Part shown: piece by piece, positions 14,700 to 17,450 of the stretch
How positions within the stretch are numbered: the stretch's first letter is position 1
How the letters are laid out: the number at the start of each line of letters is the position of its first letter
Assembly (NCBI GenBank): GCA_040904565.1
Contig: JBBDTI010000031.1
Location: forward strand, 39,056-103,055
DNA length: 64,000 nt
Reading direction: 5' to 3'
Origin: Rhodothermales bacterium
Lineage (GTDB): Bacteria > Bacteroidota > Rhodothermia > Rhodothermales > VXPQ01
The notes under the pieces: model-generated
What the model saw: only the letters and a program-made list of their open reading frames with translations
What the model was told of the DNA's origin: nothing
Databases searched by the model: none
Translations under genes and position numbers: made by a program

Positions 14700-15344
14700 A
14701 TGTTCGACTTCTCGGAAGCGCCGATCACGCTGATCCTGATCCTGGTCAACGTGCTGGTCAGCGGATACGCGTTGTTCTTCGATGAGTCGCTGATCGATCG
14801 GCTGGCGTTCAAGCCGCGGGAGATCCTTCGGCAGGGGCAGTACCGGCGTTTGTTCACGGCCGGATTCGTACACGTAAGCGGATCGCACCTGCTCTTCAAC
14901 ATGATCACGCTCTATTTCTTCGGGCGTCCGATGGAGCAGTACGTGCTGGGGCCCGGCAAATTTCTGCTGCTCTACGTTGGATCGGAGCTGGCAGCACACG
15001 CCCTCTCGCTTGTCCTGCATCGGGATACGGCGGGATACGCGGCCGTAGGAGCGTCAGGCGCCATCAGCGGCGTCCTCTTCGGATACTGTCTGTTCGCCCC
15101 GCTCCAGCCGATCTACCTGTTCTTCGTGCCCATCGGCATTCCCGCGGCGCTCTTTGCCGTGGGGTACGTCTTCCTTTCGATGTACGCCATGCGGCGGGGG
15201 CGGGAAGGAGGACGCTCCATGACGGGCGGCATCGCGCATGAGGCGCACCTCGGCGGGGCGTTCGGTGGCCTGTTGCTCACGGTACTGTTAGAGCCGCGCG
15301 CCATCTCCATCTTTCTCCAGGAACTGAGTCGCATCGGGATGTAG
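14700..15344 (+). CDS. Rhomboid family intramembrane serine protease
   Basis: H....HLLFNM, catalytic GASG, AHEAHLGG; hydrophobic helices. Confidence 0.93.
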   Translation: MFDFSEAPITLILILVNVLVSGYALFFDESLIDRLAFKPREILRQGQYRRLFTAGFVHVSGSHLLFNMITLYFFGRPMEQYVLGPGKFLLLYVGSELAAHALSLVLHRDTAGYAAVGASGAISGVLFGYCLFAPLQPIYLFFVPIGIPAALFAVGYVFLSMYAMRRGREGGRSMTGGIAHEAHLGGAFGGLLLTVLLEPRAISIFLQELSRIGM

Positions 15345-15423
15345 CTCGATCTAAAACCGTTATTGCACACGGCGGTTGACCCATGTATCCAAGGGGTTAC
15401 GCGAAAAGCACCGTTATTGCCAC

Positions 15424-15452
15424 TTGCGATTAGATCGTGGCGGATCTATATT
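15424..15452 (+). promoter_or_regulatory. Putative sigma70 promoter of candidate sRNA
   Basis: TTGCGA (15424-29), 17 nt spacer, TATATT (15447-52). Confidence 0.6.
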
Positions 15453-15458
15453 AAGATC

Positions 15459-15553
15459 ACCTCATGCGCCTGGAGACCCATTCACGTGGGGACCATCAGT
15501 CGCTTCAACGTGGGCTTCAAGAAGCTCGGTCTGGTGGGCAGGCCGGGCTTTTT
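15459..15553 (+). ncRNA. Candidate ~95-nt small RNA (family unknown; ends approximate)
   Basis: Bounded by a promoter and a 12-bp hairpin + T5; internal stem CCCAT-TCAC-GTGGG. Confidence 0.5.
15522..15553 (+). terminator. Intrinsic terminator
   Basis: AAGCTCGGTCTG-GTGGG-CAGGCCGGGCTT (12 bp with two G.U) running into TTTTT. Confidence 0.7.
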
Positions 15554-15649
15554 GGTCTCCGGCCCTCGGATGCCCAGCTTGTCAACACGCCGCCGACGTC
15601 TTGTGGATATCGTGTTAGTCAATTGTGGATTAGTCGTGGCGCGATTCTC

Positions 15650-15678
15650 TTGACGTGCGCACCCTTCCACGCTATAAT
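15650..15678 (+). promoter_or_regulatory. Near-consensus sigma70 promoter of the large ncRNA candidate
   Basis: TTGACG (15650-55), exactly 17 nt, TATAAT (15673-78); the best match I noticed in the window. Confidence 0.85.
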
Positions 15679-15683
15679 AAGCC

Positions 15684-16719
15684 CAGTGCCTGACGGCACT
15701 GTTCCTTGACGCGACTGAAAACTCTGGGCTGCATGAGGATGCCCGTGCACTGATCGTAAGATCAGTCAGGAGATGCGGCAATCGAACGGCAGGCGGTGCC
15801 GGTTGGTCTGAAGGGGTTCGCCCTCGCAGGCTTTCTGGAACGGCTGCCGGTTTGGATGCATGCGTATCCATTCGCTCACAGACGCGCTGCTTCGGCAGTT
15901 AAGTGTGAGTCGGGTGGAATCGCCAAGCCTTCTCGTCGTGGACCGTGGCTTCGGCCGCCGGTCCCCTCGGTTTCGGCCTTCGGGTCGGCCGAACGGAAGC
16001 GACGGATGGTGCGCATCAGTCCCGCGCGATGCTATGAAGCGATCGGCTGAAAAGCCGTCTGCGGAGAGCGGCGTTTGTTGATGCAGTGAGCTGGAGGATG
16101 TTCGGTGGAGGCCGGACGCGTGATGAAACCGTCTGTCGAAGGACGACGGTGGAACGTGTCCCGGTCGGTGAAGCCGGTATTCGCCACGTGCTCGCCGAGA
16201 GCGGTTTGTGACGAAGCGGCCGTACCTTTGGGTGCGACGTGGATCCAACCGCTCGATGACGCGGCCAACCGCTCGCTGCGGAGAACGACGTTCGACGAAC
16301 CAGGCGGTGCCGGATCGACTCCGGAGCACGGACGCTCTATGACGCGACGGCAGCAATGCCGCCGCTGAGAGCCGACGTGTGATGAAGGAGTGGATCGGCC
16401 AGATCAGCCGGGCGTGGAGCGCGAGCGAGAAAACTGAACGTGCGGGCAATCAAAGGTCCGTGGCTGCTAAACCGTCTGCCCATGCGGTTTAGACGTATCG
16501 CTGCCGGGAAACCGACAGCCGTGCGCACGGCCACCAGTGCCGGTCTTCGTACCGGCAGGAGAGTTGGCCTCCCCACCGATGGTAGGTTGCTGTTTCGGCA
16601 GCGAACTGCATCGAGGGAGGCCGGTCGCGCTGAGGGATAATTACATGGCGCACTCCGGATGCGCCGCACGATTGCACACGATTCTCTGATGCCGCCTGCT
16701 CTCGCAGACGGCATTTTTT
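15684..16719 (+). ncRNA. Candidate large (~1,030 nt) structured non-coding RNA, family unassigned
   Basis: No credible ORF in six frames; own promoter and terminator; dense hairpins with C(UUCG)G and GNRA loops and + strand G.U pairs; long-range 5'/3' helix 15702-15716 with 16623-16637. Confidence 0.8.
16689..16719 (+). terminator. Intrinsic terminator of large ncRNA candidate
   Basis: ATGCCG-C-CTGC-TCTC-GCAG-A-CGGCAT followed by TTTTT. Confidence 0.8.
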
Positions 16720-16799
16720 ATGACAGGGCTTCCCGTTGGGCGCGGAATGGACATTCCGTTCGCATGTTTCCCTCCATCAGCCGTTAGCTGGTTTTCGGC

Positions 16800-17450
16800 A
16801 TGTCCCTCGCCGCGCGCGTCCACGTCATCGTCGTCAACTACCAGACTCCGGACCTGCTGGATACGGCCGTGCGGTCGTTCGTCGAGCACTACCCGGACGT
16901 TCCCCTGCTGATCGTCGACAACGGGTCCCGCGACGCGTCACGAGACGTCATCGAGACACTGCATGCTGACCTTGCGAACGTGTCGTCCCTCCAGTTGGAG
17001 GAAAACCGCTATCACGGGCCGGCCATGGACCTGGCCCTGCGGCACGTAGATGTCGACTACGTGTTTTTGCTGGACAGCGACACGAAGACCATGAGGGGAG
17101 GTTTCCTCGAGGAGATGCTGGCGCGATCCGAGGAGCCGAACGTATACGGTGTCGGAAAGATCGCGGAGGTAAACGAACGTGGATTTGCCGCGACACGGGG
17201 CATACCCGTGCTCGTGAGCGCCTACATGCTCATCGATCGAGAACGCTATCTCGACCTTCCGCCGTTTATTCACCACGGTCTTCCCGCCCTTCAAAACTTT
17301 CGCGCGGCGGCCGAAGCAGGATACCGACTCGAACCCTTTCCCGTAGACGAGTATATCGAGCATTTCGGACGGGGGACGGCCGAGCGGTACGGATACGGGT
17401 TGGGCTGGAAGGGGCGCCTCGATTACCTGCTCAACAAGCTGGGCTTTTAG
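16800..17450 (+). CDS. Glycosyltransferase family 2
   Basis: IVVNYQT, IVDNGSRD, DxD (LLDSD). Confidence 0.88.
   Translation: MSLAARVHVIVVNYQTPDLLDTAVRSFVEHYPDVPLLIVDNGSRDASRDVIETLHADLANVSSLQLEENRYHGPAMDLALRHVDVDYVFLLDSDTKTMRGGFLEEMLARSEEPNVYGVGKIAEVNERGFAATRGIPVLVSAYMLIDRERYLDLPPFIHHGLPALQNFRAAAEAGYRLEPFPVDEYIEHFGRGTAERYGYGLGWKGRLDYLLNKLGF

Follow-up and report, generated by a model that had tools for sequence, protein, structure and literature searches.

The 64-kb window analysed here (64,000 nucleotides [nt] of contig JBBDTI010000031.1 of a Rhodothermales bacterium, the whole stretch of DNA under study) contains at positions 15650-16719 of the plus strand one separate non-coding transcription unit, which consists of a promoter, a 5' hairpin, the word TGTTCCTTGAC, a folded body and a terminator. 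This segment is most likely the gene for a large structured non-coding RNA of approximately 1,035 nt as transcribed, and it is present in one copy in its own genome. It lies between a rhomboid protease gene and a family-2 glycosyltransferase (GT2) gene, and a GATase_5 (purQ-like) gene is also found among the flanking genes. The features of the locus are listed below; P1a and P1b are the two parts of a helix predicted between the ends of the RNA, free energies are given as dG, and rrn denotes the rRNA operon.

14700-15344: rhomboid protease gene, upstream flank
15600-15649 (+): A/T-richer upstream region with two TTGTGGAT repeats just before the -35 hexamer
15650-15678 (+): sigma-70-type promoter, TTGACG-17-TATAAT, matching the consensus at 11 of 12 positions
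15684-15701 (+): 5' hairpin CAGTGCC-TGAC-GGCACTG in the boxB position (7 base pairs [bp], loop TGAC, dG -11.6)
15700-15718 (+): boxA-like element TGTTCCTTGACGCGACTGA, near-invariant in 67 homologues and resembling the rrn leader of the same genome
15702-15716 (+): P1a 5' strand TTCCTTGACGCGACT of the terminal (leader-trailer) helix, overlapping boxA
15720-15725 (+): P1b 5' strand AACTCT, inner part of the terminal helix, pairing with 16560-16565
15730-15738 (+): conserved block TGCATGAGG, with invariant or near-invariant alignment columns
15739-16559 (+): variable-length folded body containing numerous hairpins capped by GNRA or UUCG, with motifs like the kink-turn (k-turn)
16473-16491 (+): conserved hairpin loop CGTCTGCCCATGCGG, second in conservation among the blocks and with the top summed RNA-contig depth
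16560-16565 (+): P1b 3' strand AGAGTT, partner of 15720-15725
16566-16622 (+): side hairpin at the three-way junction, GGCCTCCC...GGGAGGCC, present in the minimum-energy fold and covarying
16623-16637 (+): P1a 3' strand GGTCGCGCTGAGGGA, in which transitions preserve pairing with the invariant 5' strand
16647-16665 (+): additional 3'-tail hairpin, predicted and lineage-specific
16689-16719 (+): intrinsic terminator ATGCCGCCTGC-TCTC-GCAGACGGCAT followed by a T run (dG -14.6)
16800-17450 (+): GT2 gene, starting 80-90 nt beyond the terminator

A first-pass annotation of this DNA had proposed that the large RNA is packaged like an rRNA precursor, with a boxB/boxA-like leader and a processing stalk formed by its 5' and 3' ends. 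The leader hairpin that it described (15684-15701), running into TGTTCCTTGAC at 15700-15710, was found at exactly these coordinates. The hairpin begins near the predicted transcription start, approximately 6 nt past the -10 hexamer (which ends at 15678), and the homologues have a TTGAC..TATAAT-like pair at an equal distance from the RNA.

A protein-coding identity was considered and rejected: the longest frame in the unit (227 amino acids, minus strand) has no Pfam match, and in the nearest relative this antisense frame gives only broken hits in several frames. When the 64-kb window was searched with Rfam 15 (4227 models), no match reached the gathering score. In the region 15400-16900, E-values up to 10 admitted only M23 (21.5 bits; gathering score 41.2), and in four homologous loci there was no Rfam 15 match inside the RNA. 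The RNA is not RNase P RNA or tmRNA, as the genome carries its own copies of these elsewhere (C13:121164-121586 and C65:1-368, respectively). The Rfam 6S model found nothing in this genome; it is insensitive, missing 9 of 14 control genomes as well. The large RNA shares with RNase P RNA, tmRNA and 6S RNA, all abundant structured RNAs, the pairing of its 5' and 3' ends. 6S RNA is a single rod of approximately 185 nt, whereas the large RNA and its homologues are multibranched and 0.4-1.25 kb long. A search of the main texts of the full-text literature found no description of this RNA.

The RNA thus appears to fit no described Rfam family and appears to be a candidate for a new class of large bacterial non-coding RNA. 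OLE, GOLLD, ROOL, HEARO and raiA are large ornate bacterial RNAs, hundreds of nt to more than 1 kb in length, whose biochemical role is unknown. The large RNA is similar to them in size class, dense conserved structure, variable insertions and narrow taxonomy, but the window and the four homologues score below the threshold of every Rfam 15 model, including theirs. None of these five RNAs is known to have an rrn-type boxA leader.

The terminal helix and its conservation

When 40 other genomes of the order were searched by BLAST, 31 had a homologue of the large RNA. A scan for an exact pattern in 185,579 species, each represented by one genome, returned 98 stretches. Fifty-six of these have titles naming Rhodothermales, Rhodothermia, Rhodothermaceae or Roseithermus; the remaining titles are Bacteroidetes/Bacteroidota bacterium (18), unnamed bacteria (4), a name beginning Flavobacteri (2) and other phyla (18). 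Those hits to other phyla that were inspected have no hairpin, and several lie inside coding sequence. Among the carriers seen, only Roseithermus sacchariphilus MEBiC09517 (locus L030) is cultured. Twelve loci judged false were removed, as were loci with no detected terminator (many of them truncated by a contig end), leaving a working set of 81 sequences, 67 of them distinct. Nearly all of the 67 are from uncultured Rhodothermales, and they represent many families. The RNA is widespread in the order, not universal. A class-wide BLAST with an 81-nt query matched 28 of 151 genomes (the genome under study, G000, included), all within the order. This query missed five of the six sampled genomes of genus g8, in which a longer query had matched 11 of 12; because the short query misses known carriers, absences in this search mean little.

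The order of elements is the same in all 67 homologues. The 5' part consists of the promoter, the hairpin and GTTCCTTGA(C/A)GCGAC, followed by the variable body; the 3' part consists of the partner of the inner strand, a CCTCCC...GGGAGG hairpin, a purine-rich partner of the boxA strand and the terminator. The length from hairpin to terminator ranges from approximately 0.4 to approximately 1.25 kb, and the differences take the form of hairpin-sized insertions. The additional tail hairpin at 16647-16665 is missing from most lineages, in which P1a is followed by an A-rich linker and then the terminator.

The two halves of the terminal helix are in keeping with their first-pass description. TTCCTTGACGCGACT (15702-15716) pairs with GGTCGCGCTGAGGGA (16623-16637) at 14 of 15 positions; four of the pairs are G.U, and the exception is an A.C mismatch (15709/16630). 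This pairing is recovered in the 67 distinct homologues. The continuation across the side hairpin at 16566-16622 also stands: AACTCT (15720-15725) and AGAGTT (16560-16565) pair at six of six positions, separated from P1a by 3 nt on one side and the side hairpin on the other to give a three-way junction. The 5' hairpin, the side hairpin, P1a and P1b all appear in the minimum-energy fold of 15684-16640, which has an energy of -479.7 kcal/mol, compared with -417.9 +/- 6.3 for 20 dinucleotide shuffles (z = -9.7). A match of at least 14 of 15 arises somewhere in 39 of 2000 dinucleotide shuffles of the remaining transcript; because such a match is only moderately unlikely in a single sequence, the case for the helix rests on comparison. 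The terminal helix is also present in the minimum-energy folds of four homologues folded singly, and a consensus fold computed for a clade of 15 homologues closes in the same way.

The 67 full-length sequences were aligned with MAFFT (alignment A1) and pairs were counted in four helices, namely P1a, P1b, the 5' hairpin and the side hairpin. Standard pairs are formed in 83.9% of 2264 helix cells, as opposed to 40.8-47.1% when the 3' partners are displaced by 1-3 columns. Covariation scores 0.194 (shuffled: 0.157 +/- 0.004), a value reached by 0 of 500 shuffles. The side hairpin pairs in 91.3% of cells, and five of its seven inner pairs change on both sides (at one pair, for instance, GC occurs 34 times and AU 24 times). 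The five inner pairs of the 5' hairpin form in 94.9% of cells and three of the five change on both sides; in some lineages this hairpin is lengthened or is replaced by CAGCGTC-TTCG-GATGCT. P1a pairs in 84.3% of cells. In nine of its 14 pairs the variation is confined to the 3' side, nearly always between U-A and U-G or between G-C and G-U, and two-sided covariation is limited to one of the 14, because the 5' strand is invariant or nearly so.

P1b is paired in only 67.7% of cells in the MAFFT columns, and its register shifts between clades. Because fixed columns therefore under-count it, cognate strands were compared with permuted ones. Cognate P1b duplexes have a mean energy of -8.54 kcal/mol versus -7.14 +/- 0.22 for permuted strands, and 0 of 5000 permutations are as low (55 distinct combinations). 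With 18 representatives, one per distinct 5' strand, the values are -7.05 and -5.53 +/- 0.40 (1 of 5000). It is thus this permutation test, and not the alignment columns, on which P1b is based. Covariation of the long-range helix, which the first-pass annotation had put forward as a check, is borne out for the inner helix and for the overall score; for P1a the changes are one-sided. On comparative evidence from sequence, the long-range 5'-3' helix is a genuine and conserved feature that covaries in part: it encloses the whole RNA and has been retained through evolution with compensating changes, those in P1a being confined to one strand.

Two further observations were made on the folded RNA. 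Within the body, 16064-16367 contains k-turn-like signatures (C-stem, 3-nt bulge, tandem GA..GA), the best case being 16117-16168, GGACGCGT-GAT-GAA-ACCGTC / GACGGT-GGA-ACGTGTCC. The pattern has ten matches, some of them mutually exclusive, compared with 2.0 +/- 1.5 (maximum 8) in 300 mononucleotide shuffles; an L7Ae-type k-turn protein (PF01248) was not found in this genome, which is 94.9% complete. The invariant block TGCATGAGG (15730-15738) and the loop TGCCCATGC (16476-16484) could pair as AUG(A)GG with CCCAU, a tertiary contact that is beyond the reach of covariation because neither block varies.

Likeness of the leader to rrn leaders

The 16S gene of this genome is not assembled, but the rrn promoter, the leader and the first 40-50 nt of 16S are present at the end of contig C43 (C43:6800-7145 of G000, equivalent to L125 1330-1670). 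This leader contains a hairpin followed by TGTTCTTTGATGAGATTGG at L125 1499-1517, approximately 120 nt before 16S. The two leaders can be written as [hairpin]-TGTTCCTTGACGCGACTGAAAACTC for the large RNA and [hairpin]-TGTTCTTTGATGAGATTGGAAGCAT for the rrn operon. The rrn hairpin ends 1 nt ahead of GTTC, and in five of six rrn leaders the hairpin ends 0-7 nt ahead of boxA. Five complete relatives have TGTTC(T/C)TTGAT(G/A)AG 98-121 nt before 16S; the rrn leader of one relative (G007) reads TGTTCCTTGATG.

The first-pass proposal of a boxB/boxA-like leader is upheld by this comparison with the genome's own rrn boxA: the order of elements is the same and the 17-nt GTTCYTTGAYGNGAYTG is shared. GTTCYTTGAYGNGAYTG has exactly two zero-mismatch sites in the genome, one in the large RNA and one in the rrn leader, although this exclusivity is partly circular and carries no independent probability, the word having been defined from these two sites. 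Fourteen further sites occur at two mismatches, and a reversed control has four sites at up to two mismatches. In the five complete relatives, GTTCYTTGAYGNGAYTG has eight sites at no more than one mismatch, found only in the rrn leader and/or the large RNA. The boxA strand is near-invariant in the 67 homologues and its 3' partner is variable, which is more conservation than pairing requires. The leader of the large RNA therefore has three features of an rrn-type boxA, namely a sequence like that of the host rrn, a promoter-proximal position after a hairpin and conservation beyond pairing. Its resemblance to the rrn boxA of its own genome and of relatives, in the same hairpin-then-boxA order, is well supported at the level of sequence.

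The position of boxA within the fold is also similar. In RNAduplex predictions for the five relatives, the 16S leader and trailer form a very long duplex (dG -103 to -122), at whose base the rrn boxA region lies. In the 16S duplex of L123, CUUUGAUAAG pairs with the trailer strand CUUAUCAGGG, and in that of L121, AUGAGA pairs with UCUCAU; in the large RNA, the partners of the boxA strand are of the UCAGGG-, UGAGGG- or CAGGAA-type. Because a hairpin, a boxA and the engagement of that boxA in a leader-trailer helix are common to both, the large RNA seems to copy the local grammar of pre-16S RNA. Like the rrn leader (boxB-boxA-boxC), the large RNA has a strong promoter, a hairpin and then boxA, and boxA at the base of a helix, and in both cases the enclosed RNA is untranslated and highly folded. 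Unlike the rrn operon, the large RNA has a non-rRNA body, one promoter, no tRNA and its own terminator, and its closing helix is irregular and approximately 21 bp long, whereas the 16S duplexes of relatives are predicted to span many tens of bp. In the rrn spacers of the five relatives (L119-L123), a second GTTCTTTG word follows the 16S trailer strand; this is presumably the spacer boxA ahead of 23S.

The antitermination machinery that acts on rrn operons has been described in E. coli. According to PMC10250234, boxA is necessary and sufficient to recruit the rrn antitermination complex (NusA, NusB, S10, NusG, SuhB and S4), NusB-S10 binds boxA, and RNase III cuts the rRNA leader-trailer helices. 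The genome studied here encodes NusB (C94), Rho (C89) and RNase III. Outside rrn operons, boxA is present in the nut sites of phage lambda (mentioned in PMC10250234) and upstream of CRISPR arrays (Stringer et al. 2020, eLife, as summarised in PMC7862264). As in the large RNA, a long untranslated transcript begins with these elements, which are thought to keep the polymerase going. In contrast to them, the boxA of the large RNA doubles as a strand of a conserved end-to-end helix, and the product is a single folded RNA rather than an array of small units or a phage operon.

Proposed model and alternative explanations

The proposed model for synthesis of the large RNA, which draws on sequence and layout, is as follows. 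The RNA would be built with the cis-grammar of the organism's own pre-16S RNA: a promoter, a hairpin, an rrn-type boxA and a helix from the leader to the 3' end around the body. NusB-S10 would bind the nascent boxA and the polymerase would become an rrn-type antitermination and chaperone complex. This complex would carry transcription across 0.4-1.2 kb of untranslated RNA and hold the 5' strand until the 3' strand has been made. The strands would then pair (P1a and P1b around the side hairpin), burying boxA, closing the molecule and defining stable ends. Finally, the stem could be either cut by RNase III or kept, and we lean towards a kept stem with the 3' tail trimmed to it. Action of Nus factors at the leader is plausible, and we regard as probable an RNA of rrn grammar with Nus-assisted synthesis and a closing helix.

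Several points weigh against this model, among them the one-sided changes of P1a, the shifting columns of P1b, the circular definition of GTTCYTTGAYGNGAYTG and the pooled depth figures given below. With its tight fold and its excess of G over C (GC skew up to +0.17), the transcript would be a poor Rho substrate; protection from Rho may therefore not be needed, and the chaperone role of holding the 5' strand may outweigh it. Something other than Nus binding could account for the conservation of the P1a 5' strand. In addition, 9 of the 40 relatives had no BLAST match, and in four of five such relatives that were inspected, a coding gene directly follows the syntenic rhomboid gene. As some relatives are without the RNA, it is dispensable in parts of the order.

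The contigs of four RNA libraries from four studies (X9, X12, X18 and X20) were placed on the window and their depth was summed. In the leader bin, 15678-15716, summed depth is 97,639 in X9 and 29,567 in X18. The corresponding values are 416,222 and 265,125 in the adjacent bin (15717-15755) and 1,583,966 and 245,994 at 16458-16496. In the flanks (15600-15677 and 16653-16760) the depth is about 0 in both libraries, although relatives would not map there anyway. These figures sum many organisms, whose RNAs map to the conserved blocks only, and so cannot rank expression. The depth stems from this RNA family, because loose-end sequences by the 16458-16514 block resemble homologues such as L003. 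The family is thus present at very high depth in metatranscriptome RNA libraries, which in outline fits an abundant RNA. The first-pass suggestion of an abundant product holds only to this extent, for the conserved blocks in X9 and X18.

Two observations on the same contigs bear on the fate of the helix, and they point opposite ways. Depth in the leader bin is 4-9 times lower than at 15717-15755, and one X20 contig begins exactly at 15717. At the 3' side, two whole contigs (X12 record 7 and X20 record 21) end at 16634 and a partial match in X18 reaches 16638, such that the RNA contigs contain both helix strands, including nearly the whole 3' strand, and stop approximately 80 nt before the T run of the terminator. 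The depth step and contig ends are weak hints, because ends also arise at branch points of the assembly graph and 31-letter words thin out at transcript ends. The contig ends at 15717, 15737-15740 and 16634 and the alignment end at 16638 were considered as processing sites and set aside as too ambiguous.

Because both strands are present in RNA contigs, the helix may be a permanent closing stem of the mature RNA, with trimming of the tail and terminator to the stem base as the sole processing. Contigs from X12 and X20, which are from different studies, share the end at 16634, close to the end of the X18 match. In most lineages there is only a short A-rich linker between the 3' strand and the terminator, and the hairpin, stem and side hairpin together would form a compact end resisting exonuclease entry. 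On the other hand, contigs cannot show RNA ends and these come from RNA libraries alone, and a permanent stem leaves the lower depth of the leader unexplained. We judge that this account comes close to being probable.

The first-pass annotation had instead proposed a processing stalk, in which RNase III cuts P1a/P1b, the leader and trailer are discarded and a mature RNA of approximately 830-900 nt remains. An RNase III gene is present, the drop in leader depth (X9 and X18) and the X20 contig starting at 15717 agree with such a cut, and the design parallels the pre-16S leader-trailer helix that is cut by RNase III in E. coli, as outlined in PMC10250234. However, the helix is short and irregular: P1a spans 15 bp, of which one is a mismatch and four are G.U, and P1b adds 6 bp over a 3-nt gap and a three-way junction. 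For the rrn operons of relatives, much longer leader-trailer duplexes are predicted. The contigs reaching 16634 (X12, X20) and 16638 (X18) retain nearly the full 3' strand, the leader itself retains a summed depth of approximately 30,000-98,000 and the depth step proves nothing. Cleavage of the helix as a stalk is rather unlikely on this evidence.

Alternatively, the 5' strand might not be a Nus site at all, belonging instead to the RNA's own functional core or serving as the site of another protein, with its likeness to the rrn boxA being coincidental. Its invariance runs well beyond the boxA core (GCGACTGA) and is followed by the invariant TGCATGAGG, the rrn and RNA versions differ at approximately 5 of 20 positions, and pairing in P1a alone would constrain the sequence to some degree. 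Pairing is nevertheless insufficient to explain the invariance of this strand, because its 3' partner varies freely and the 5' strand does not. Furthermore, the same hairpin-preceded word occurs at the leader-trailer base in the rrn operons of the same genomes and, at 0-1 mismatch, nowhere else in them. We consider a non-Nus strand unlikely. It is highly improbable that the region serves the GT2 gene as a long 5' leader or as a regulator, or that it is protein-coding: the GT2 gene is on the same strand 80-90 nt past the terminator and lies downstream in 17 of 67 homologues, and a 227-amino-acid frame is open on the opposite strand, but a strong terminator separates the RNA from GT2, the GT2 linkage is not general, the open frames are neither conserved nor matched in Pfam, and homologues differ in length by hairpin-sized insertions.

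Under the favoured model of an rrn-grammar RNA, a known kind of packaging appears to be wrapped around an apparently new class of large RNA. Most of what is known about antitermination by boxA comes from rRNA operons and lambdoid phages, with CRISPR arrays a more recent addition. If the model is correct, bacteria reuse the machinery of rRNA transcription and folding for a chromosomal, order-wide, non-ribosomal large RNA, and the Nus-factor field gains a second natural substrate to set beside rRNA. The candidate class is clearly bounded and numbers 67 distinct homologues, in which a conserved core carries variable expansions, and there are signs that it is very abundant in environmental RNA. 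Its cultured carrier, R. sacchariphilus MEBiC09517, whose homologue lies at about 193.4 kb of CP030158 (L009/L030), makes the question testable at the bench. We put forward only tentatively the wider view that this is a large and undescribed RNA, among the most abundant transcripts that these bacteria make in nature, and that it is made and folded by the rRNA machinery through a genuine boxA and helix. It would then be a stable, non-ribosomal RNA produced together with rRNA, perhaps associated with the ribosome or forming a self-assembling particle.

Neighbouring features

The two TTGTGGAT repeats at 15600-15649, just before the -35 hexamer, may be an UP-like element or the site of a regulator. 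Homologues of one family (f1) retain TGTGGATAT..TTGTGGAATAAT here, and in other families this position is occupied by A/T-rich runs. In 56 of the 67 homologues, the RNA is preceded by the rhomboid gene on the same strand. For the GT2 gene, found downstream in 17 of the 67 as noted above, downstream sequence exceeding 1,200 nt was available in 44 of the 67.

The interval from the rhomboid gene to the large RNA contains an element of approximately 100 nt (15424-15558) that is 73-82% conserved in eight other loci, with the conservation extending to loci of other families. Its sequence includes a promoter-like site (15424-15452) and, at 15528-15555, a terminator-like hairpin with a T run; the fold energy is -44.6 kcal/mol, and no Rfam family matches. 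The element could be a small RNA or merely the terminator region of the rhomboid gene.

The rhomboid gene of one relative that gave no BLAST match (G034, locus L135) is followed by a gap of approximately 850 nt that is free of open reading frames. This gap holds a hairpin and TGTTCCTTGATACGA, after which approximately seven tandem 14-nt repeats resembling GTGACATTGGTTA are found (L135 approximately 2450-2600, with the rhomboid gene oriented as plus). This unit of a hairpin and a boxA-like word may be a divergent or decayed version of the large RNA unit.

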